From contig CAVPSB010000025.1 in the NCBI GenBank assembly GCA_963708025.1, positions 1-64,000 on the forward strand: a stretch of DNA of 64,000 nucleotides, written 5' to 3'. This document shows positions 7,733-23,741 of this stretch, one piece after another. This DNA comes from an uncultured Candidatus Rokubacteria bacterium. Its GTDB lineage: Bacteria > Methylomirabilota > Methylomirabilia > Rokubacteriales > DASRDR01. Position 1 is the stretch's first letter, and each line of letters opens with the position of its first letter. The notes under the pieces were generated by a model. It did not search any database, was not told the origin of the DNA, and saw only the letters and a program-made list of their open reading frames with translations. The translations under genes and the position numbers were made by a program.

Positions 7733-8191
7733 CTAGTGAATCCGCCACACTCCTGTCCCACCCTGGCCTGTCCCACCCTGGCCTGTCCCACTCTGGCCTA
7801 ACCCACCCTGGCCTGTCCCACCCTGGCCTGTCCCACCCTGGCCTGTCCCACCCTGGCCTGTCCCACCCTGGCCTGTCCCACCCTGGCCTGTCCCACCCTG
7901 GCCTGTCCCACCCTGGCCTGTCCCACCCTGGCCTGTCCCACCCTGGCCTGTCCCACCCTGGCCTGTCCCACCCTGGCTAGCAACCTGTGGATCTTGGTGA
8001 GGGGGATTCCCCGACGGGGGGTTGCCCGAGCCTCCCGGCGTGTGGTTGCCCGAGCCTCCCTGCGTGTAGTTGCCCGAGCCTCCCTGCGCGAACGCCGGCT
8101 TGGCGGCGAGCGTAAGGATGATCGGCTGCACGTACAACGCCTTCCGAAGGATCTCTCGCCTCGTCTGATCCACTGGACGATTCTCGGACAT
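7733..8191 (-). CDS. Small Gly-rich repeat protein with RR..KALYVQPIILTL leader (precursor-like or secreted)
   Basis: ATG 8191 with GGGAGG RBS and a sigma54 promoter just upstream. Leader TRREILRKALYVQPIILTLAAKPAFA, then (GGSGN)x3 and (QGGTG)x15. Confidence 0.75.
   Translation of the reverse strand: MSENRPVDQTRREILRKALYVQPIILTLAAKPAFAQGGSGNYTQGGSGNHTPGGSGNPPSGNPPHQDPQVASQGGTGQGGTGQGGTGQGGTGQGGTGQGGTGQGGTGQGGTGQGGTGQGGTGQGGTGQGGLGQSGTGQGGTGQGGTGVWRIH
7753..7977. repeat. 15-bp tandem repeat, ~15 copies (CTGTCCCACCCTGGC), coding QGGTG
   Basis: Seen directly. Two units vary (QGGLG, QSGTG). Confidence 0.95.
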
Positions 8192-8248
8192 TCTCGGTTC
8201 CCTCCCGAGTCTGGGACTTGCGATAGCGTGGTGCTGAGCCTCATGCAT

Positions 8249-9546: not shown

Positions 9547-10110
9547 GGGCATGCCCCGGAATCGGTACGCCCGTCGAACGCGATCCTGGCGCCACTGCGC
9601 GATGCGTCATGCCGCGTTTCGCCGTCGCTGACTGAGCACCGCCGGGATGTCGCGCCACCCGTCGACGCGCCGCAGCCGGATCTGGCCGCTGGCCACGAGG
9701 CCGAAGAGGAGGACCAGCGCCGCGTCCTCGGTGGGCAGGCTGCCCTGGGTCTTCACCCGGCGCCGGAACTCCTCATGCAGCCGCTCGATCACGTTTGTGG
9801 TCCCGAGGCCGCGGGCCACCAGATCGTCCAGGCAGCCCTTCCACGCGTCAAACGATTCGCCGCCGCAGAGGTCCAGCGCCACGAGCTGCTTCTGGCCGTC
9901 GGCGCGAATGGCGACCACGCCGAGGACCGGGACGCTGGTGACCTTCCCAGCGCTCCGGACCCGCAGGGCGATGGCGTCGAGGTAGACGGTCTTCGCCTGG
10001 GCGATCGAGGAAGCGAGCGCCGCGCTCGACGCGGAGCCGCCCCGTCGGTCCGCTCGACGTCGGCCGACGCCCGGTCACGCGGCGCTCGCCGACCTGGCGG
10101 CGCGTCATGA
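9547..10110 (-). mobile_element. IS256-family transposase remnant (internally deleted)
   Basis: VYLDAIALRVR..GQKQLVALDLCGGESFDAWKGCLDDLVARGL is joined directly to TTNVIERLHEEFRRRVK. GGG-starting terminal sequence at 9547. Confidence 0.8.
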
Positions 10111-10720: not shown

Positions 10721-10960
10721 CTACCCCTGAATGACGAAGTAGCCGAACTGCGTCCACATGCTTCGTTGCCCCCAGGTCAATGGTCGGCGCCGTTCGCCGT
10801 CAGGTCGTTCCCGGGCAGTATCCGGTCGCCGTCCTTCTCGTCGCCGCCGGTCGAGAATGACTTGGGTGTCCGGCCCGTACTGTCGGCGAAGATCCTGGTA
10901 GAGCAGCATCTCATCCGCCCGGACGACGAGCAGCCGCGGTCGGTAGGGTGTCAGACCCAC
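10721..10960 (-). CDS. Small Arg-rich DRR/ERR-motif protein
   Basis: LLVVRADE.LLYQDLRRQY..DTQVILDRRRRE..ERRRP. Paralogous to the two neighbours. Confidence 0.65.
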   Translation of the reverse strand: MGLTPYRPRLLVVRADEMLLYQDLRRQYGPDTQVILDRRRREGRRPDTARERPDGERRRPLTWGQRSMWTQFGYFVIQG

Positions 10961-11043
10961 GTCTCTAGGCCGCGGAGGATCATGGTGGTGTGGAGGGGCT
11001 CACCCGATGGTCCGAGGAGCGGGATCATGTGGGTTGAGACGGT

Positions 11044-11391
11044 CTAGCCGACGAGGACGTCGGCGACCCGCGTCACTGGCCGTAACGTTCGAAGGCGGCG
11101 CTCGCCATGCCGACGCTCCGGCGGGCCCAGCCCGAGCGTTCGACGCCGTTCGGTCCGTCGACGGTCCACCACGATCCGCACGTCTGGCACGTCGGCGAAG
11201 GTGTGCAGGAGATGCCTGAAGAGATCCGGCTCGCTGACCGGCACGACAAGAACGGAGCGCGGGGGCCGAGACGGTCGGTCGCGGAGAACCCGGTCCTGGC
11301 AAGAGAGGCAGATCCCATGCGGGACATTGTGGAGATCCAGCGGCGGTTTCTCCCCGAGGACGCGGTCACACCACGCGCACACGCAGATCAC
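11044..11391 (-). CDS. CxxC..HGICxxC Zn-ribbon fused to a DRR/ERR-motif domain
   Basis: CAWC..HGICLSC, followed by VLVV..PDLFRHL..DVRIVVDRRRTERRR..ERRHGERR. Confidence 0.7.
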   Translation of the reverse strand: MICVCAWCDRVLGEKPPLDLHNVPHGICLSCQDRVLRDRPSRPPRSVLVVPVSEPDLFRHLLHTFADVPDVRIVVDRRRTERRRTLGLGPPERRHGERRLRTLRPVTRVADVLVG

Positions 11392-11790
11392 GAATGATCG
11401 ACTCCTAAATGGGAAGTAAGTGACGCGTACGGTGAGGGTAACTCTGTACGCTTGTCAATGCCTTCAAGTGTTGACTGTTTGGGCATTCCCCGCCGTTTGG
11501 AGGTCCCTCTCCGTGTTGGCCATCGGCACCGCGCGATTCAGGTGAACAGACGGTCTCGCGTCGCGGCCTCACCCGGTTTCGCTTATCCTCGAGTTGGCCC
11601 TCACGAGTACTTCCGCCCGCGCTGCGGAACCTCGCTGCCGTTGCTCATTGTGGGCGCCGAGCGGCGCCGGATTGTCCGTGGTCAATTCCTAACACCACCC
11701 CTGATCAGGAAGTGAGCGTTCAGCGGAGTCGGCCGTGCGGCACACTCATTAAATCAATCTGTTGGTAAGCTAGAGCGGATGGACGCCGAG

Positions 11791-11806
11791 TGGCACGCCG
11801 GATGCT
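11791..11806 (+). promoter_or_regulatory. Candidate sigma54 promoter
   Basis: TGGCACGCCGGATGCT (GG-N10-GC). It is very close to the RBS, so the geometry is imperfect. Confidence 0.45.
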
Positions 11807-11818
11807 CCATGGAGGACC

Positions 11819-12067
11819 ATGCGAGACAGACGGCCCCGACTCATCGTCGTTCGGCGGGGTGCCGTCGAGTTGTTCGAAGAACTCCAGGCCCGGTACAGGA
11901 GGGACGGGCGTACCACCATCATCTGGGATCGGCGGATTGCCGAGGGGCCGAACGAGGGGTCTCACCGGTCGCCACGCGAGCGACGGTTTCCGCGGGATCG
12001 CGACATTCTGATCGATCGCGGATTCTTCGTGACGCGAACCGGAAACCGTAGAGTCGAGGCCGGCTGA
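11819..12067 (+). CDS. Small Arg-rich DRR/ERR-motif protein
   Basis: GGAGG RBS. RLIVVRRG..LFEELQARY..TTIIWDRR..ERR..DRGFFV. Confidence 0.7.
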   Translation: MRDRRPRLIVVRRGAVELFEELQARYRRDGRTTIIWDRRIAEGPNEGSHRSPRERRFPRDRDILIDRGFFVTRTGNRRVEAG

Positions 12068-12860: not shown

Positions 12861-12983
12861 CTATCCGGCATACCCGTCCACGGTGTCATCAGGGCTAGCG
12901 GACCCGACGCCGGTGAGGCCCGCGAGCTTCTCCTCGTGTTTCACCAGCTCCGGTTCGACAAACTCCTCTTTGCGCGGCTCCAT
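12861..12983 (-). CDS. Lasso-type RiPP precursor A3 (40 aa)
   Basis: GGGAGGA RBS. MEPRKEEFVEPELVKHEEKLAGLTGVGSASPDDTVDGYAG. Leader is near-identical to A1. Confidence 0.85.
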   Translation of the reverse strand: MEPRKEEFVEPELVKHEEKLAGLTGVGSASPDDTVDGYAG

Positions 12984-13089
12984 CATTCCTCCCTTGGCTT
13001 TCAATCCACCCTTCCACCCTTCTGCTCCGTTTGCGCTCGACGACCGCTGCCGTCCCGGCCAGCCTGGCGCTGACGCCACCTTGCTGGCC

Positions 13090-13215
13090 GGGCGGCTGCG
13101 GCTCCCGGCGCTTCATCGGGGACGACGTGCCGATGCCGTCCATTCCGGTGATGTCCGCGAGCTTCTACTCGCGTTTCACCAGCTTCGGCTCGACGAACTT
13201 TACCTGCCTTGGTCC
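13090..13215 (-). pseudogene. Degenerate RiPP precursor copy A2
   Basis: ..RQVKFVEPKLVKRE*KLADITGMDGIGTSSP.. has the same leader, an in-frame TAG and no start codon. Confidence 0.8.
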
Positions 13216-13334
13216 TAAGTCGGCGTTGAAGCGTCGTCGGTGTTATACCCGACCGCCCCGGCGGTGAGGTCCGCAAGCTTCTCGTGGTACTTGACCAGCT
13301 CGGGCTCGACGAACTCCGCCTTCCGCTCTGTCAT
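13215..13334 (-). CDS. Lasso-type RiPP precursor A1 (39 aa; not in ORF track)
   Basis: My translation: MTERKAEFVEPELVKYHEKLADLTA-GAVGYNTDDASTPT*. FxxPxL RRE-binding motif, Thr(-2), Gly1, Asp8/Asp9. Starts 17 nt after the upstream stop. Confidence 0.9.
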   Translation of the reverse strand: MTERKAEFVEPELVKYHEKLADLTAGAVGYNTDDASTPT

Positions 13335-13351
13335 GAATCCGCCTTTCCGGT

Positions 13352-15248
13352 TCAGAGGTTCGCTCCGCGTGTGATGCCCAGCAGGTCCCGGACACGATCA
13401 CCCCCTTTCGTCGTCGCTCGTGAGGTCCCAAAATACCGCTCCGCCTTGAGTAGGCTGTTCACGGCATGCTGAGTGTGATCGATGCGCATCGTGCTATCCG
13501 CCAGCGAAGCGCGAAACCCACCCCAGACTCGCTCCGCGTGCTCCACGTAGAAGCTGTTATCCTTCGTGAATTGAAGGCGTAGAGTAAAGAGGACGGCGGT
13601 CAGCGCCGCCCGCTGATACAAGGCGGCGCGCTCGCGCTCCCCCAGTTGGCAGGCAAGGTCGTATGCCTCCAAGATCCCCTCGTTATAGGTGGCGCTCGGA
13701 ATCCCGGGCACCCGGCCGCCCGCGTATCCGCCCACGTAGTCTGGATACGGGGCGTTGACGCCGGTGTACTGGCGCGGCAGCATCCAGTCGGCCATCTCGA
13801 ACACGAACTCGGCATAGTCGCGCTCGCGAGTCAGCCGGTAGAGCTGCGCGTAGGCGGCCATCTGCCAGGGAGGGAAGGCCGAGGGTCGCTCCCGGCGGAA
13901 AAAGTCGCGGTAGTGAGGCAAATGCTCGTCGGAGCGCTTCGGGATATCGCGGGTCGGGATGCCGGGCGTGAAAAGTCATGAGTGCCAGCATCGCCTCGCC
14001 CGGGTAGAAGTCCTGCCCGTCGGCCCGCGTTGACGGGGGAAAATACGCGAGAAATCGACCGTTCGGCTGCTGGAGGCAGAGGATCGCCTCGGCCAACCGC
14101 TGTCCGAGCGCCAACAACCCATCGTCCTCGGCGGCGGCAACCGTCAGAAGGCCAAATGCCGTGGCGCCGAGCGTCACCTCTCCGCCATCGCCGTCCACCA
14201 GGGCGCTATTCGCGCCGGCCGGCCCGGGCCGTGTCTTCCCCTGGACGAAGGCGAGCGCCCGTCGGGCCGCTGCCCAGTACCGGGCGTCTCCGAAGCGGTG
14301 GGCCAGCTTCACCATCAGCCAGGTCGTGGCGACCTGGCGCACCACGTTGTCTTCCGGGGCATACCGGCCTTCGGCCGGCGCATACTGGTAGGCGAACCCA
14401 CCATCGGCCCGCTGGGTGCGAACCAGGAACTCGGCCCCTTCTCGGATCGCCTCGGCGATCCGATCCGGAGACCAGTCCCGGGCGCTGACGAGCCGGTTGG
14501 CGCGCAGCAGGTCGCACACGGCGACGCCACCCTCCCCCTCGATGAAGCTCGTGGAGCAGAAGCGCGAAAACCGGATTCCCGGGCGGCGATACGCCTTCCG
14601 CGGCCATCCGCCCTTCTCACAGAGCTGCGGAATCAACTCGCCGATCTTCCAGTTCCTGGTGATGGCCATCGCGCTCTTGAACAGTGCCCGCCGCCCTTCT
14701 TTCTCCACCATCACCCCGTGGATCCCCGGCTCGATCACCTCGACGAATCGCTTCAAGCGGCGCGCTCGGACGCGACTCGCCGGGCCCAGCACTTCGAGCT
14801 CGATCCTCAGGCGGGAAAGCTCATCGGCTCCGAGGGGGACGACGCGCTGGTCACGAAGCGTCCGCTGGGCCGCGAGGACCGTATTGTGGAACAGGGATCC
14901 GCCGCCCTCGCCGCGGCACCCCCGCATCGTCCCATCGACCCAGAACGTCACGAACACGGGCTCGGTGCGGTGCAGGAGCCGGGGTGCCGAGACCGGCATC
15001 GTCCCGTTTCGCTCGCCGCCCAGGTGGTGCGTGACGACCGTCCGGGCCAGATGAAGGAGAGAGCGCTTTTCTTCCTCACCGAGAATGGGCGCCGGACCGT
15101 CGTCCGCGGCGCTGGCCCGGCCGCGCCTCGACGCGACAAGCGGGAGATTCTGGCACCGGGTCGAGATTGCGCGTGCGACGTGTCTGAACAGACGAGTCTT
15201 CGCGGCGGCCTGGGCGAAGGCGATTGTCCGAGCCGCATGCCAATTCAT
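13352..15248 (-). CDS. AMMECR1-domain + alpha-helical toroid protein (+1 frameshift near 13920)
   Basis: VFVTFWVDGTMRGCRG..DQRVVPL..EL..LRIELEVL (AMMECR1). Then FLVRTQRADGGFAY, LQQPNGRF and RIDHTQHA. ATGA-coupled to the nucleotidyltransferase. Removing one base joins ORFs 13683..15287 and 13352..13921. Confidence 0.75.
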
Positions 15249-16498
15249 CGGACGGCCGCCCGCCTGTCCTTCGCCCGCATGCCCCACCAGCGGGCGGGAT
15301 GAAACGAGTAGAGGAAGTTCAGGAGCTCAGATTCCGGGTATCGCTTGGGCAGGAACCGATTGTCTTCCGGGTAATGCACCGCCGTTCGGTAGAGGGCGCG
15401 CCCGACACCGACCCATCGCTCCTCGCTCGCGAGGTGCCAGAGCAGTGCGTGAAAGGCGGAGGCCTGGTCTGGCGCACAGGATCCGAGGTCGGCCAGCCAC
15501 CGACGGCTCACCAGATCGATGAGCGCCCGCTCGCACATCCCACCGCCGGCCAGAGCCTGCGGCGGGATCGCGGTCCCCAACACCCTTTGCGTGAGTCCCA
15601 GGGCCACTCGGACCCGTCGGGCAATCCCATACCGTTCGGCCGCGCCGCCCAGATGAGCCCAGTCGAGTCGCTGTCGAGTCACGGCCAGGTCGATGTCGAC
15701 GAGGCGAGCGAGCCGGAGCTGCCCGTAGGCGTCCCCCGTGAGGTGGAGGCAAAGGTGGAGGAGGAGGTGCTCCGGGCGGAGAGAGAGAGTCTCGACGCCA
15801 GCGATTGTGGTCGCCTGCGCCTCCTGCCACAACTCGGCGATGTTGACGCCTGTGCCCGGCTTGGCGATGTGCCAGTGGAGCTCGAGCGGAAAGAACTGCC
15901 CCTCCCTCCAGAGCTGGTAGTGGAAGTGAAAGCGCGCATAGATCTTCGCGGTCGTCTGGACGTTGACCGGGCCCCGGGATCGGGGCAACAGGCCGGCACG
16001 TCGTGCGCGGGCCCGGAGGTCGGCCGGGACGATGGGATGCAGGCGATACCCGCGCTCTTCCAGCAGCTCCATGGCCCTTGCCCGCGTCTCTTTCGGCACG
16101 AGAAGATCGAGGTCGCCCATGTACCGGAGGGCGATGTCCCCATATAGCGAGGGGGCCATGGCCGCCCCCTTCAGGACCACCACCGGGACCCCGGCCTGAT
16201 GAAGCCCCTCCAGTACCCCTCCCAACTCACGGTAGAGGTAGGCGTTGCGCGCGAGATTGTGGACGTAGAGGGCCCGACAGCGCTCGGCGAGGGCCCGCAC
16301 AGGGCCATCGCCCTGTCCGCTGGCGACAAGGGGAGCCAACGTACGGTACACGAGTGGCCCGACACGGTGATCGGCAGCCGTGGCGGCAACGTGGTCCCAG
16401 CGAAATGCTCCGGGGTGGAAGTCCTTCGACGCGAGCCGCGGGGCGCGCCGGCCCAGCTCGATCAGCAGGCGCCGCTCCTCGGCGAGAGGTGTATTCAT
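15245..16498 (-). CDS. Nucleotidyltransferase (NTP_transf_5-like, lasso-cluster associated)
   Basis: VVVLKGAAMA..LYGDIALRYMGDLDLLV, LELHW, HLLLHLCLH, RLVDI. ATG overlaps the B2 stop (ATGA). Confidence 0.9.
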   Translation of the reverse strand: MNTPLAEERRLLIELGRRAPRLASKDFHPGAFRWDHVAATAADHRVGPLVYRTLAPLVASGQGDGPVRALAERCRALYVHNLARNAYLYRELGGVLEGLHQAGVPVVVLKGAAMAPSLYGDIALRYMGDLDLLVPKETRARAMELLEERGYRLHPIVPADLRARARRAGLLPRSRGPVNVQTTAKIYARFHFHYQLWREGQFFPLELHWHIAKPGTGVNIAELWQEAQATTIAGVETLSLRPEHLLLHLCLHLTGDAYGQLRLARLVDIDLAVTRQRLDWAHLGGAAERYGIARRVRVALGLTQRVLGTAIPPQALAGGGMCERALIDLVSRRWLADLGSCAPDQASAFHALLWHLASEERWVGVGRALYRTAVHYPEDNRFLPKRYPESELLNFLYSFHPARWWGMRAKDRRAAVR

Positions 16499-16959
16499 GT
16501 CGCTTGACGCTCCCGGCCGGGATGTCGATAGACCACCCTGAACCTCCTGGTCTGGTGGGTATCCCGTTCCAGGTAAAGCTCGCCGTTTCGCACCAGCCAG
16601 GCATGGCCGAGCAACCGGCGCACGCTCCGATACGGCGGCTGGTCGTCTTCGTATTTGACTCCGAAGCAGATCTCCAGGTTCGCCGCCTCGCCGCCTAGGA
16701 ACCGGTAGAGCGTCAGGCTCCGCGCCAGACAGGGGCCGCGTGGGTTCCACATCCGGCGTCTCAGGACAGAGTCGGTGCAGGCCACCACGAGATCGTCGTC
16801 AGCGGGGTGCGCGCGAGCCGCGGCAGTGCAAAGCTGAAGCAGGCGCGGCAGGCTGCACAGCCGAAGCAGAAGGGGAAGGATGGAGACAAAGGTCCAGATT
16901 CGGACGAACAGGACAGCCTTCCGGACCCACGAACCGCGGAACGGACTGCTAGAGCGCAC
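16495..16959 (-). CDS. Lasso peptide B2-type leader peptidase (transglutaminase-like)
   Basis: GTG with GGAGG RBS. Catalytic motifs PCLARSLTLY, FGV and GHAWL. Confidence 0.9.
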   Translation of the reverse strand: MRSSSPFRGSWVRKAVLFVRIWTFVSILPLLLRLCSLPRLLQLCTAAARAHPADDDLVVACTDSVLRRRMWNPRGPCLARSLTLYRFLGGEAANLEICFGVKYEDDQPPYRSVRRLLGHAWLVRNGELYLERDTHQTRRFRVVYRHPGRERQAT

Positions 16960-17962
16960 GGGCCCTCCCCGCTGTTCGTGGCTGAATACCGGCAACGAGG
17001 ACCCTGATGGCCCGACCGGGATCCGTGAGGAAATCGCGGCCGTGGAGGAACTCGTAGGTTGACGACTGCCGGACGAGAGCGCCGAGGGTTGCCAGCTGCC
17101 GTCTTGCGAGCTGGGGGCTCGGGGAAAGTGCGCTCTCGCCCAACAAGCGCCTAAAGGCCTCCGTCTGGGGGATCGGTCGGAGGACGCTCTCCGGCCCGGC
17201 GACGATTCGCGGGAACACGATGAAGGCGGGCCGACATTCTCCGACATGGGATCCACGGTATAGCTGCTCAGGACTGAAGTTCCGTTTGCCATTTTCGAGC
17301 GGTGGCAGCTCTTTGATGAACGACAGCTCGGTGTAGTGATCCACCCACATCGGGTCGAGGTTGAACGTCCGAAAGAATGCAACGCAGCGGACATCGTCCG
17401 GTCCGCCCGCGAGGAAGACGAAATCGTCGGTGACGTACTGGAACCCCGCATGGCGGATGAGAGCGAGCGCCAGGGACGTTTTCCCGCTGCCTGACGGGCC
17501 GGGGAGCAGACACCCGGCGCCGTCTTTGGTCACGGCGGCGGTATGGACGCCGTAGAACCCGCGGTGCCGGGCGAGTTCGAGGAGAGCGACCGAGACCAGC
17601 TCCATCAGGAGTCGCTGATTGGAAGCCGCCTGCCGGCTGACCCACACTGTCGCCCTCGAGGCGGTGGGCGTCACCCGTAGGCACGCGCCTCTTCCCGAGT
17701 CGTAGAAAAAATGACGACCCAGGCTCGCGGTGCGGTAGTTCGGATGCCGGCTGACCGGCTCGGCGGCCAGGGGAATGATCGGAAGCTTTTCCGGCGCCAC
17801 AACGGTCAGCCGCAGGTAGAACCGCTGAGGACCGAGGTGGCCGAGTCCCGCCTCCAGATAGCGCAGGTAGCCGGAGAGGAACTCGCGCACCACCGAGTCT
17901 CGGCAGGCGAGAGACACCGACTGGACGGTCAAGGGCGGGGCCGCCAATTCAGCGGACCTCAC
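16949..17962 (-). CDS. HPr kinase-like P-loop kinase (RiPP-associated)
   Basis: VHTAAV, GPSGSGKTS (Walker A), YVTDD. Confidence 0.85.
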   Translation of the reverse strand: MRSAELAAPPLTVQSVSLACRDSVVREFLSGYLRYLEAGLGHLGPQRFYLRLTVVAPEKLPIIPLAAEPVSRHPNYRTASLGRHFFYDSGRGACLRVTPTASRATVWVSRQAASNQRLLMELVSVALLELARHRGFYGVHTAAVTKDGAGCLLPGPSGSGKTSLALALIRHAGFQYVTDDFVFLAGGPDDVRCVAFFRTFNLDPMWVDHYTELSFIKELPPLENGKRNFSPEQLYRGSHVGECRPAFIVFPRIVAGPESVLRPIPQTEAFRRLLGESALSPSPQLARRQLATLGALVRQSSTYEFLHGRDFLTDPGRAIRVLVAGIQPRTAGRARAL

Positions 17963-18067: not shown

Positions 18068-19732
18068 CTACAGGTTCCCCCGCCGCGCTTCCCGGACCAG
18101 ATGATCGGCCGCCCGCATCGCGAGGGCGTGGATGGTCAGGGAGGGCGAGTCGCCCCCGCCTTGAGTCACGAACGTGCTCCCATCAGTCACGAACAGATTT
18201 CGCACGTCGTGGGCCTGGCCGTACCCGTTCACGACGGAGGTTCGGGGATCGTCACCCATCCGGCACGTCCCACCCATGTGCGTGATGAAGCTCATGTCGT
18301 ATGACGAACGCTGCTGGATGATCTCCACCGCCCGGGCGGCGCGCAAGATCTCGCCGATCTGGCGACGCATGAAGGCAAGCATCTCCAGATCGTTCGGGCG
18401 CAGGCAGGTGGTGATCCGGGGCAGCGGAATCCCGTGGGCATCCTTCGCCTCCGGATCGAGCATTACCATGTTGCTCGCGTGGGGAAGCTGCTCGCCGACC
18501 CCGTACACGGTCAAAGCGTGTCCGAAGAACTCGCGCATGAACGCCTTGTGCTCACTGCCCCATCCCGGGGCCAGACCCAGCGCGTAGGCCACGGGCCCCA
18601 TGACGTCGAGAGCGGACACCCCCAACAGGACGCCACCGGCAAAGCGGTCGCTCTTCTCCGGACGATTGAAGTCCCAGATCCGCGCCTCGATCGGCACACC
18701 GCGGTGCGCATCGATGCGGTCGGCAAACAGTGCCGTCATACTCAGGGTGATCGTTTCCTGGAAGAACCGTCCTACTGTGCCGCTGCCGTTGGCGACACCA
18801 TTCGGAAACGCCGGGCAGGCGGAGTGGAGAAGCAGTCGCGGCGATTCGAGCGCTCCCCCGGCGAGGACCACGACGCGTGCCTTCTGGCGACGCGGGATCC
18901 CGTCCGACCCGAGATAGACGACGCCCGTTGCCCGTTCTTGGCCGTTGAGCTCGATCTGGGTGGCTACGGCCTCGGTGTGGATCTGGACACGCCCGGTGGC
19001 CTCGGCCATCGGGACAAAGGTTCGATCCATGCTGGACCGGGCCCCGGTCATGCAACCCCAGAGGCAACCATTGCAGTAGTCGCACGCAGGGCGACCGTCG
19101 TCGGCTTGCGAGAGGATGGCCAGGGAGTTGGGGAGCAAGGTGAGTCCCAACTCCTGGCACCCCCGGCGGACGACCTCGCTGCCTCTGCCCAGGGGGTGGG
19201 GTGGGCGGGGATAGGGCTCCCGGCGAGGCTTGAAGGGATTGTGGTGAGGGCCCGCCACCTGGAGAACCGCTTCGGTCTCGCGGTAGTAGGGCGCCAGGTC
19301 CTCATAGGAGATCGGCCAATCGGCGCCCACGCCGGTGAGCGACCTCAGCCGAAACCCTTCCGGAGCGAGGCGATGCGCCTCTCCCTCGTAATGCAGGGTG
19401 CTGCCCCCCACGCCCTTCACCCGGAAGACGCGGGGTGGCGTCCGCCGCCTGGTCGAGTTGTGGAGCCCGCGGGCCTTCGACCAGGAGCGAAGATCCGAGT
19501 ACGAGCGTTGCAGCCGTTCGCACGGCCCCCATGTGTACTGCCGGGGACCGGCGAGGAGCTGAGGAAACGCCTCCCGGTCCGGCCGGTGGCTGTGAAAGTT
19601 GCGCCGCGGGTCGAACCGCGGGCCAGCCTCCACGACCGCCACCGATAGCCCGGCTGCCCCGAGGCGCTGAGCCACCACCGCGCCGCCGGCGCCCGAGCCG
19701 ATGACACAGACATCCACCTCGCCCTGATTCAC
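18068..19732 (-). CDS. GMC-family FAD oxidoreductase
   Basis: VIGSGAGG, GVGGSTLHY, CDYCNGCLWGC Cys cluster, HMGGTCRMG, VTDGS, SPSLTI. Confidence 0.92.
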   Translation of the reverse strand: MNQGEVDVCVIGSGAGGAVVAQRLGAAGLSVAVVEAGPRFDPRRNFHSHRPDREAFPQLLAGPRQYTWGPCERLQRSYSDLRSWSKARGLHNSTRRRTPPRVFRVKGVGGSTLHYEGEAHRLAPEGFRLRSLTGVGADWPISYEDLAPYYRETEAVLQVAGPHHNPFKPRREPYPRPPHPLGRGSEVVRRGCQELGLTLLPNSLAILSQADDGRPACDYCNGCLWGCMTGARSSMDRTFVPMAEATGRVQIHTEAVATQIELNGQERATGVVYLGSDGIPRRQKARVVVLAGGALESPRLLLHSACPAFPNGVANGSGTVGRFFQETITLSMTALFADRIDAHRGVPIEARIWDFNRPEKSDRFAGGVLLGVSALDVMGPVAYALGLAPGWGSEHKAFMREFFGHALTVYGVGEQLPHASNMVMLDPEAKDAHGIPLPRITTCLRPNDLEMLAFMRRQIGEILRAARAVEIIQQRSSYDMSFITHMGGTCRMGDDPRTSVVNGYGQAHDVRNLFVTDGSTFVTQGGGDSPSLTIHALAMRAADHLVREARRGNL

Positions 19733-21382: not shown

Positions 21383-22387
21383 ATGGAACCGCAGGTCACG
21401 ATCGTGGTCGTACCGCGGGAACGGTTCAGCGTCACCCGTAAGTCTCTCGAGAGCATCTACGAGCATACCGACATACGCTTCCGGCTGGTCTACGTGGACG
21501 GGGGCTCTCCGCCCCGGACCCGCCGGTATCTGCGGGCTCAGGCCGCGTTTCGGGGCTTCGAGCTCGTTCGGACCGAATACTACCTCTCCCCGAACCGCGC
21601 GCGAAATCTCGGGCTGGCCAGAGTCACCACACGGTATGCCGTCTTCATGGACAACGACGTCGTGGTCGCGCCCGGCTGGCTCGGCGCCCTGGTCCGGTGT
21701 GCCGAGGAGACCGGGGCCGCCATCGTCGGTCCCCTCAACTGCGAAGGGATGCCTCTCCACCAGGTGATCCATTTCGCCGGAGGGGAGTGCGGTGTTCGCG
21801 AGGACCGCGTGGATGGACGGATCGAGCGACACCTCATCGACAAGATCTCCCGGCAGGGACAGCGGCTGAGCGACGTGCGCGAGCAGCTTCGCCGTGAGCC
21901 GACCTCCGTCGCCGAGTTCCACTGTCTGATGGCTCGGACCGACGTGTTCCAGAAGGTCGGTCCCTTCGACGAGGCGCTGCTGAGCGTGCGAGAGAACCTC
22001 GACTTCTGCATGGCGGTGGCCCAAGCCGGGGGTACGATCTACATCGAGCCGGCCTCCATCATCACCTACGCCGGGGATGAGCCGCTCGCGTTCGCCGACA
22101 TGCCCTACTACATCCTTCGCTGGAACGATGCCTGGACGCTGGGCAGCTTGCACCACCTCCGCGACAAGTGGAACCTGACCGAAGATGAATACTTCCTCCG
22201 GCAGTACAAGAACCTCTCCTGGCGGCGCAAGCTGTACCTGATCCGGCCTCTCTTCCGCTGGGTCCCCGCCTGGCGGATCCGCCTCGTGCTGGAATGGCTG
22301 GTGGCTCCTCTGGACAGGGTGGTCAGCCGCTGGATCGTGACCCGGTACACGCGCCGCCAGGCCGAGCTTCTTCGAGGTCAGGCCTAG
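21383..22387 (+). CDS. GT2-family glycosyltransferase
   Basis: VTIVVV, VYVDGGS, RARNLGL, FMDND (DxD), GPFDE, ENLDFC. Confidence 0.9.
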   Translation: MEPQVTIVVVPRERFSVTRKSLESIYEHTDIRFRLVYVDGGSPPRTRRYLRAQAAFRGFELVRTEYYLSPNRARNLGLARVTTRYAVFMDNDVVVAPGWLGALVRCAEETGAAIVGPLNCEGMPLHQVIHFAGGECGVREDRVDGRIERHLIDKISRQGQRLSDVREQLRREPTSVAEFHCLMARTDVFQKVGPFDEALLSVRENLDFCMAVAQAGGTIYIEPASIITYAGDEPLAFADMPYYILRWNDAWTLGSLHHLRDKWNLTEDEYFLRQYKNLSWRRKLYLIRPLFRWVPAWRIRLVLEWLVAPLDRVVSRWIVTRYTRRQAELLRGQA

Positions 22388-22529
22388 CACGCCCGGGGGC
22401 CCTTCCGACCGGTTGGAGCGTTCCGCGGCCGGGTGAAGCCACCAGGCAGGACGGGAGCCAAGTGCGGGGTCACGATCGGCGCCGGCCGGGATTCGGTCCG
22501 CTTCCGACGCCGCGCGCCGATCTCGGCTG

Positions 22530-23741
22530 ATGCGCGCGGAATCGGGAAGGCTGCGTGTGCTCTTCCTCCCCTCCTGGTACCCGCACGCAGACCACCCCAC
22601 GTACGGCATTTTTCTGCAGGTCCAGGCGGCCGCGTTGGCGAGACGGTGCGGCGTCGTGGTCGTCCCCGTGCCCCGGCCGATGTCGCTGTTCCGGCGTCCA
22701 TGGGGCTGGGGCGACCGCTGCCGAATCCGCCAGGGTCCTGCGAGCCTGGTCGAGCTCCATCTGAGTGGGCCGAATTACACGCCGCGCGCCTCGAAGGCCT
22801 ACGAGAGCGTCATCTGGAGGCTCTATCGGCGCGGCTTCGCCGAAGCGGGCCGGCTCTTCGGGGCACCACCGGACCTCATCCACGCTCACGTGGCGATCGA
22901 GGCCGGCTACTTCGGCGCCCGCCTCGCGGAGCGGTATGACGTCCCCCTCGTCCTGACCGAGCATGTGAGCCGGCCGGCGCTCTTGATGAGCACGCAGTGG
23001 GACCGAGAGCGCGCGCTGTACGCGATGCACGCGGCGAAAAGCTTGATCGGCGTCAGCCCTCCGCAGCGGGATCTGCTCTATCGGGCGGGCGTGCAACGCG
23101 AGATCGACGTCGTACCGAACCCGGTCGACACCGAGCTGTTCAGCCCCGATGGGTCGGTCCCGCCACCTCCGCTCCGGCTCATCACGGTGGGACACCTCAT
23201 CGCGCGGAAGGGGATCCTGAACCTCCTGGAGGCCGTGGCGCGGATCGGCGCGAGCGATCACGGTCCGCTGGAGCTCGAGGTCGTGGGAGCCGGTCCCCTG
23301 AGACCTCGGCTCGAGGCCGCGACCGCCTCACTAGGGCTCGCCGGGCGGGTCCGGTTCCACGGCGAGCGATCGCATCCAGAGGTCCGAGACCTGCTCCGGC
23401 AGTCGCACATCTACGTCTGCTCGAGCGTGACCGAGTCGTTCGGGGTGGCGGTCGTCGAGGCGATGAGTGTCGGACTCCCGGTCGTGGTGACGCGGAGCGG
23501 CGGGCCGGAATCCTACGTCACGGACGCTCACGGCGTGGTCGTGGCCCCGGACTCGATCGAGGGACTGACGGAGGGCATCCGTGGACTCGTGGGTCGCCTG
23601 GGCGACTTCGACCGGCGGAAGCAACGCCAGTATGTGCTGGACCGCTTCAGCCAGGACGTCGTGGTGAACGAGATCGAGAAGTGCTATGCCCTCGCGCTCG
23701 AGCGTCACGCGAGCCAGGTGGCCGGGCGACGCCCGCGGTGA
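22530..23741 (+). CDS. GT4-family glycosyltransferase
   Basis: DLIHAH, VPNPVDTELF, VGHLIARKG, ESFGVAVVEAMSVGLPVV. Confidence 0.92.
   Translation: MRAESGRLRVLFLPSWYPHADHPTYGIFLQVQAAALARRCGVVVVPVPRPMSLFRRPWGWGDRCRIRQGPASLVELHLSGPNYTPRASKAYESVIWRLYRRGFAEAGRLFGAPPDLIHAHVAIEAGYFGARLAERYDVPLVLTEHVSRPALLMSTQWDRERALYAMHAAKSLIGVSPPQRDLLYRAGVQREIDVVPNPVDTELFSPDGSVPPPPLRLITVGHLIARKGILNLLEAVARIGASDHGPLELEVVGAGPLRPRLEAATASLGLAGRVRFHGERSHPEVRDLLRQSHIYVCSSVTESFGVAVVEAMSVGLPVVVTRSGGPESYVTDAHGVVVAPDSIEGLTEGIRGLVGRLGDFDRRKQRQYVLDRFSQDVVVNEIEKCYALALERHASQVAGRRPR

Follow-up and report, generated by a model that had tools for sequence, protein, structure and literature searches.

The precursor array and its operon

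The window, that is, the entire 64,000-nt stretch of an uncultured Candidatus Rokubacteria genome analyzed here, contains a minus-strand operon that ends in a tandem array of short precursor genes. Reading along that strand, the operon comprises a discrete RRE (PqqD/B1; PF05402; 20449..20730), in which the Asn equivalent to LppB N33 is kept and Ser occupies the position of the Asp (LppB D70) found in Tyr-binding RREs; two accessory genes, for a small subunit of the gluconate 2-dehydrogenase subunit 3 family (PF13618; 19729..20394, start uncertain) and for a GMC oxidoreductase (18068..19732), the nearest solved relatives of which are the large subunits of fructose/glucose dehydrogenases; an HprK-type peptide kinase (16949..17962) with intact His140, GSGK161T and Asp179-Asp180; a B2-type leader peptidase (Transglut_core3; PF13471; 16495..16959, with a likely GTG start at 16959); a PF14907 nucleotidyltransferase (15245..16498) with a DLD metal motif and an ATG that overlaps the B2 stop; and an accessory protein in which an AMMECR1 domain is fused to an (alpha/alpha)6 barrel (13352..15248). 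The stop and start codons of the kinase, B2, nucleotidyltransferase and AMMECR1 fusion genes overlap. The B2 peptidase retains Cys, His and Glu at the invariant positions and scores 32.5 bits against NF033537 (cut-off 33). The kinase motif (His140, Lys161, Asp179-Asp180) matches the one reported to be needed for BsfK (PMC10368454).

Divergently, on the plus strand (21383..23741), lie genes for a GT2 (21383-22387) and a GT4 (22530-23741) glycosyltransferase, which are putative pathway members. A mycofactocin-like system was considered and rejected, given that the family-level matches of GT2 and GMC are far below the cut-off and the operon encodes no radical SAM enzyme. In this assembly, a single extra base near 13915-13916 breaks the reading frame of the AMMECR1 fusion. 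Because this base is missing in all four sequencing runs compared and a relative of 96% identity carries an intact gene (631 aa), the frameshift is either an assembly error or private to the strain. In a structural model of the fusion (pLDDT 76), the N-terminus matches AMMECR1 proteins; the ESM Atlas yielded only leads under 0.9 for this protein. A lanthipeptide-like route through the barrel was discarded, as A1 and A3 contain no Cys.

The array forms the end of the operon, with the start of A1 located 17 nt past the stop of the AMMECR1 fusion gene. A1 (13215..13334, minus strand; 39 aa) has the leader FxEPExxK[HY]xxxLxxxT and a predicted 14-aa core with Gly4-Tyr5, and A3 (12861..12986, minus strand; 40-41 aa), which is preceded by a strong ribosome-binding site, has a predicted 15-aa core with Gly2-Ser3. 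Neither intact precursor matched Pfam or NCBIfam. The translations of A1 and A3 given in the preliminary description hold, as does its account of three conserved leaders joined to variable cores; A1, absent from the original list of open reading frames, appears once the cut-off is set at 20 aa. The proposal of precursor duplication and diversification is supported. The leaders of A1, A2 and A3 constitute a single family of 55-nt direct repeats with 80-87% identity. A six-frame search of the whole 8.17-Mb genome with the leader motif returned five matches, namely, A1, A2, A3 and two solitary intact copies, one on contig C16 and one on C49, and because all five are family members, the array is not a chance occurrence.

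A2 (13117..13212, minus strand, ends approximate) had been regarded as a pseudo copy on account of its in-frame TAG (13165-13167), which we confirm. Its leader (13147-13197) begins 17 nt past the A1 stop, both a start codon and a ribosome-binding site are absent, and near-identical DNA of other runs contains further indels, of 7 nt at 13152 (run X15) and of 1 nt at 13176 (X1 and X6). Because of these additional lesions, A2 is a genuine decayed copy, rather than an intact gene with a single possible sequencing error. Read-through of the TAG or a single sequencing error as the cause was rejected on the same grounds, and A1 and A2 do not form one multi-core frame, since their frames differ and a stop lies between them. 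One X6 contig contains an A2-leader match that runs into an intact start with a ribosome-binding site, leaving a loose end at 13199, and may represent either an intact A2 or another paralog. A promoter scan found nothing on the coding strand; contigs from the RNA run X15 cover 13104-13562 and 13763-14022, at most a weak hint of transcription.

Spread of the leader family and pairing of leaders with RREs

A leader profile built from six seed precursors retrieved 53 representatives at E values up to 0.001, two of which are long, repeat-rich false matches. The A1 orthologs P0008 and P0009 are near-identical and share the A1 leader, with a different tail; the A3 orthologs are P0002-P0006. A leader-pattern scan of metagenomes reduced 583 pattern matches to 10 confirmed loci. 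The preliminary description had made its case dependent on conservation of the small frames beside homologous RRE and B2 genes, and such conservation is indeed found: precursors adjoin RRE, kinase or B2 genes in seven of the 10 loci, and the gene order, as far as each contig reaches, is RRE, precursor(s), kinase, B2, nucleotidyltransferase and ABC exporter. The other three loci are precursor pairs on contigs without pathway genes, and at least two precursors are present in six of the 10. One locus, L034, encodes the same dehydrogenase pair as the window, along with an RRE fused to a CapA-type (PGA_cap) domain (L034:6006-7595); there, the RRE-plus-precursor unit is duplicated exactly.

Among viral contigs, none of the 19 leader-pattern matches was confirmed, and the plasmids searched yielded no match to the family. 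The profile detected no convincing member in the 250 other genomes of the host phylum, the one weak match lying inside a 355-aa frame, and A1 was not found in 60 relatives. Literature searches, in which few subscription journals were covered, returned no description of this leader family, of a B2-based cyclase-free phosphopeptide, of AMMECR1 in RiPP clusters or of RRE-guided tyrosine phosphorylation.

In the linear polyphosphorylated peptide (LPP) system, Asp70 of the RRE hydrogen-bonds the leader Tyr (PMC13381572). The LppB Asp70 position aligns to Ser in the RRE profile of the leader family. Where a precursor was identified at the locus (25 further RREs, at loci with none, are left out of the count), this Asp is present in all 34 RREs that accompany Tyr leaders and in none of the eight, from six loci, that accompany Phe leaders, where it is replaced by Ser (six) or Gly (two). 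Because the leader residue and the RRE Asp co-vary, the window RRE is the probable partner of A1 and A3; this covariation is the best sequence evidence for the pairing. The Phe-leader/Ser-RRE pair could represent a third recognition code, next to the Tyr/Asp and Trp codes described previously (PMC13381572).

Conserved features of the predicted cores

To characterize the cores, we built an alignment of 64 peptides, made up of 45 of the 53 profile matches (P0008, a near-copy of A1, the two false matches and five long or mis-started frames were excluded), the six seeds and 13 peptides from individual loci. Three peptides without the conserved Thr were dropped, and the remaining 61 cores were counted from an assumed start at the usual cut, one residue after Thr. 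The median core length is 13 residues. All 61 cores have Ser, Thr or Tyr within the first eight residues, and 47 have Gly-[Ser/Tyr] within the first seven (35 with Ser and 12 with Tyr; shuffled cores, mean 7.6 and maximum 17), counts that are overstated inasmuch as the seed profile itself carried Gly-[Ser/Tyr] and Asp cores and the relatives are not independent. The motif Gly varies in core position from 1 to 6, that is, its distance from Thr is not fixed. Tyr is the sole hydroxyl residue in four of the 61 cores, as well as in P0014 and P0015. Asp or Glu occurs at positions 7-9 in 34 cores, an enrichment over shuffles (18.5, maximum 30), and is entirely missing from 14.

Because the seed profile favors Gly-[Ser/Tyr] and Asp, we counted 16 distinct, less biased metagenome cores separately. 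All 16 have Ser or Tyr at positions 3-7, and 13 have Gly-[Ser/Tyr] within eight residues; eight contain no Asp or Glu, and the median length is nine. The preliminary description had singled out a DD pair as the modification site, which is not supported: DD is a minority feature, seen in 14 of the 61 cores (shuffles, mean 5.2 and maximum 14) and in none of the 16 metagenome cores, and the conserved feature is Gly-[Ser/Tyr]. Because an Asp five residues past the motif Gly persists in each of the four intact copies of this genome, Asp may have a secondary, subclade-level role. Nor is the Val1 of A3 an anomaly, as had been suggested, given that with the usual cut position 1 is Val in eight of the 61 cores (Gln in 17 and Gly in 13).

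A probable cyclase-free pathway to linear modified peptides

We put at about 70% the probability that a cyclase-free RiPP pathway of lasso origin takes A1 and A3 as its precursors and turns them into short, linear, modified peptides. Because the pathway includes no ring-forming enzyme, the most likely products are short linear peptides with phosphate and sugar on Ser or, unusually, Tyr. In the proposed scheme, the discrete RRE would bind the FxxPxL leader, its pocket without the Tyr-binding Asp suiting Phe, as the observed covariation suggests. The HprK-type kinase, guided by the RRE, would then phosphorylate the hydroxyl of Gly-[Ser/Tyr], Ser3 in A3 and Tyr5 in A1, a site to which both its conservation and the precedent of LppK and BsfK point. 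Next, the PF14907 enzyme might cap the phosphate with a sugar or a nucleotide, as PsmN does, and B2, with its catalytic residues in place, would cut one residue after the conserved Thr, presumably releasing a linear core of 14-15 residues. As variable accessories, the GMC pair and AMMECR1-barrel would probably remodel the attached sugar; this is the weakest and a speculative step. The array and the lone genomic copies would together feed several cores to one enzyme set, with A2 dead. Within the same model, Tyr could alternatively be nucleotidylated directly, as by GlnD/GlnE-type enzymes.

The closest precedent is provided by the LPP clusters of Bacillota, which have the composition lppA-K-B-S-D-N and the leader YxxPxVLxHQxIxFETxxS (Popov et al. 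2026; PMC13381572). LPP and the window share a discrete RRE, an HprK-type kinase, an NTP transferase and the lack of a cyclase; one to three precursors with a conserved leader, a variable core and a hydroxyl residue near the core N-terminus; and His at leader position 9 instead of the lasso Gly pattern. They differ in that LPP, confined to Bacillota, employs a SipW-like signal peptidase that cuts directly after Thr, and binds a Tyr leader through RRE Asp70/Asn33. In the window, the peptidase is instead a B2 cysteine enzyme, the leader carries Phe, the RRE keeps the Asn but has Ser for the Asp (Ser or Gly across the family), the cores are short, the predicted site is Ser or Tyr, and GMC and AMMECR1 proteins are the accessories; no SipW-like (SpI) signal peptidase was found among the operon proteins scanned. 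LPP clusters also encode an MsbA-like exporter; the window operon encodes no exporter, and those of L034 and L037 are of the ABC-2 type. The system would work like LPP but lies outside that group on its peptidase and leader.

Other known systems share parts of this machinery. The Bsf cluster of Bradymonas sediminis has B1, B2, a kinase with the same motif and a nucleotidyltransferase in common with the window, and differs from it in encoding the cyclase bsfC and in having Ile, rather than Thr, at -2 (PMC10368454). The paeninodin and pseudomycoidin clusters likewise combine an HprK kinase with a PF14907-type NTP transferase, PsmN being needed for the hexose on the phosphate of pseudomycoidin; their products, in contrast, are cyclized and modified on a C-terminal Ser, whereas only two of our 61 cores end in Ser (PMC9266682, PMC6993621). 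Several facts weigh against the phosphopeptide reading. LppK and BsfK, which phosphorylate the internal Ser3 (the latter with RRE assistance), refuse the Ser3Tyr variant (PMC13381572, PMC10368454), though 12 of the 47 motifs, including that of A1, carry Tyr; and the motif position varies, whereas BsfK is described as strictly position-specific (PMC10368454). To these are added the enrichment of Asp or Glu at positions 7-9, the fit of A1 and A3 to lasso geometry, the Asp at Gly+5 in this genome's four intact copies and the lack of an exporter gene in the window operon.

The Asp located five residues after the motif Gly invites another reading, which we regard as rather unlikely, namely, that it is a real modification site in a subclade, on which the AMMECR1-barrel acts, by forming a ring or an ester or otherwise, together with or instead of phosphorylation. 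The four intact copies of the genome all have this Asp, and the A1 and A3 orthologs retain DD while their tails vary; the orthologs of the C49 copy, however, stop 1-3 residues past it. Among motif-bearing cores, it occurs in 16 of 47, a count favored by the seed profile. Also in favor, the AMMECR1 fusion, for which no function is known, turned up at this locus alone among 70 loci and 251 genomes. Against this reading, the solved folds closest to its barrel, those of sugar epimerases, glycosidases and terpene cyclases, match it only weakly (E about 1e-6, TM 0.33-0.40 by query), and no Cys/His zinc set of the LanC type was seen in its invariant columns.

It appears improbable that the core serves as a carrier or primer for a phospho-sugar unit destined for the cell surface or an exopolysaccharide, or that the modified peptide acts inside the cell. 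Such a role would fit the accessory enzymes (GMC pair, barrel, GT2 and GT4), all of which are of sugar type, a core barely constrained beyond one hydroxyl residue, and the location of LPP clusters in capsule loci (PMC13381572). The window operon contains no exporter, which would also agree, but in L034 and L037 the cassette is followed by ABC exporters, and arrays of differing cores, up to five in L080, are better suited to a diversified signal or effector.

Returning to the linear phosphopeptide pathway, we tentatively suggest, as a possibility less probable than its negation, that the leader family is an undescribed branch of cyclase-free, B2-cleaved RiPPs in which RRE-guided enzymes modify Tyr as well as Ser, to give phosphotyrosine or Tyr-phospho-sugar/nucleotide peptides; the GMC dehydrogenase and the AMMECR1-barrel would then remodel the sugar, one enzyme set would serve a dispersed precursor library, and the Phe-leader/Ser-RRE pair would insulate the system from Tyr-leader lasso pathways. 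With this pathway, the linear phosphopeptide logic, first described in 2026 for Bacillota, would reach uncultured bacteria in the form of a B2-based branch. The short cores are cheap to make and test; the Tyr core of A1 bears on tyrosine modification by HprK-type RiPP kinases or PF14907 enzymes, and the system as a whole on what the PF14907 enzymes (PsmN, BsfN and LppN) transfer. An AMMECR1-domain protein is here given a possible pathway context as well.

Contrast with cyclase-bearing lasso loci

No gene for an asparagine synthase homolog or lasso cyclase is present on contig C25. The genome contains five PF00733 matches, on contigs C4, C18 and C22, and a sole B2, that of the window. Two full-length PF00733 proteins start with MCGI and, in a phylogenetic tree, fall with AsnB enzymes and separately from the 46 lasso-locus cyclases included; both C4 matches are too fragmentary for the tree, and their contig has no RRE or B2. 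B2 matches were detected in 64 of the 251 genomes of the host phylum, and 59 of these loci were retrieved. In 45 of 65 loci with a B2 gene, a cyclase-like gene of the same orientation lies within 6 kb; the other 20, several of them short contigs, have none.

For the comparison of precursors, three motif matches were dropped as non-precursors or truncated. Gly10 of the leader is present in 26 of 26 cyclase-linked precursors vs none of 29 cyclase-free ones, which upholds the earlier suspicion that the missing leader Gly is meaningful. The median core length is 19 in the former vs 8 in the latter, and an acidic residue at 7-9 combined with a long tail is found in 19 of 26 vs two of 29, these two being A1 and A3. 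Set against the lasso leader pattern [Y/W]xxPxL...Gly...Thr(-2), the window leader has Phe for Tyr, no Gly10 and one additional residue; Thr is kept. In the B2 tree, a single branch (100/100) unites the window B2 with 15 further B2s from cyclase-free loci and separates them from every cyclase-linked B2; the window B2 is itself a long branch (1.61) and its placement is less sure. Three further cyclase-free B2s, from L107 (a 3-kb contig), L092 and L123, fall among the lasso B2s. Because the relatives are not independent, the cyclase-free counts may reflect one ancient loss, and the sequence available for most metagenome loci is not long enough to prove cyclase absence.

A sister cassette, family f13, has Tyr leaders and arrays of up to five precursors (L080); its cores carry Ser or Tyr at positions 4-5 in 16 of 17 cases, and none has Asp or Glu at 7-9. 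G113, a complete one-contig genome with the sister cassette, yields only two partial PF00733 matches of 65 residues. In three f13 loci (L080, L081 and L082), the cassette adjoins apparent type II secretion/pilin genes, and the row of precursors is interrupted by a frame bearing a CxxxCxxC motif of the radical-SAM type (both labels assigned by eye). Six lasso loci of related genomes (L104, L111, L113, L117, L118 and L120) contain two tandem cyclase-like genes and have Lys/Gly-rich cores.

On these grounds, it is highly improbable, and largely refuted, that A1 and A3 are true lasso precursors cyclized in trans by an asparagine-synthetase homolog encoded elsewhere in the genome: the geometry of A1 (Gly1, Asp8/Asp9) and A3 (Asp7/Asp8) does fit a ring with a tail of 5-8 residues, and PF00733 genes exist in the genome and, on the opposite strand, in L039, but that geometry is not family-wide (Asp/Glu at 7-9 with a tail of at least six in 16 of 61 cores), 14 of the 61 cores have no acidic residue, the family cores are too short to thread, the leader has no Gly10, the operon has no cyclase, the host PF00733 enzymes resemble AsnB and fall outside the cyclase clade, and G113, although complete, has no full-length homolog. 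The system lies outside the lasso peptides on cyclase, leader Gly and ring geometry. According to PMC7470986, about half of the proteins matching its discrete lasso RRE model have no peptidase-plus-cyclase pair. A leader without the Gly could serve in genome mining as a simple sign that a supposed lasso cluster probably makes something else.

Origin, dispersed copies and other features

The GC content of the cluster is 66.7%, vs 70.5% in the housekeeping part of the window and 71.2% in the genome. Because of this low GC content, the failure to find the leader family and the AMMECR1 fusion in 250 other genomes of the phylum, and the occurrence of relatives on contigs of 35-46% GC, the cluster was likely acquired horizontally. 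The lone copies, intact at C16:204818 and C49:167685 and frameshifted at C29:about 126354 (the sixth copy), are far from any RRE or B2; near the C16 and C49 copies are an integrase, at a distance of about 2 kb at most, and an adjacent resolvase gene.

Elsewhere in the genome, two RREs in glycosyltransferase-rich clusters, L025:6892-7350 (C49) and L027:10021-10473 (C31), have a C-terminal extension with a YxxPxL motif of its own, as if they were RRE-precursor fusions, and no B2 is nearby. Within the window, about 3 kb downstream of the array, a short minus-strand frame (9607-9918) resembles a remnant of an IS256-type transposase. A minus-strand frame at 7733-8248, with no Pfam or NCBIfam match and no second genomic copy, has an RRxxLRKxLYxxPxxL stretch in its N-terminus, ahead of many GGTGQ repeats, and resembles a YxxP-type precursor. 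Finally, three short frames within 10721-12067 (10721-10960, 11044-11391 and 11819-12067), none with a Pfam match, share the motif DRRRxERR.
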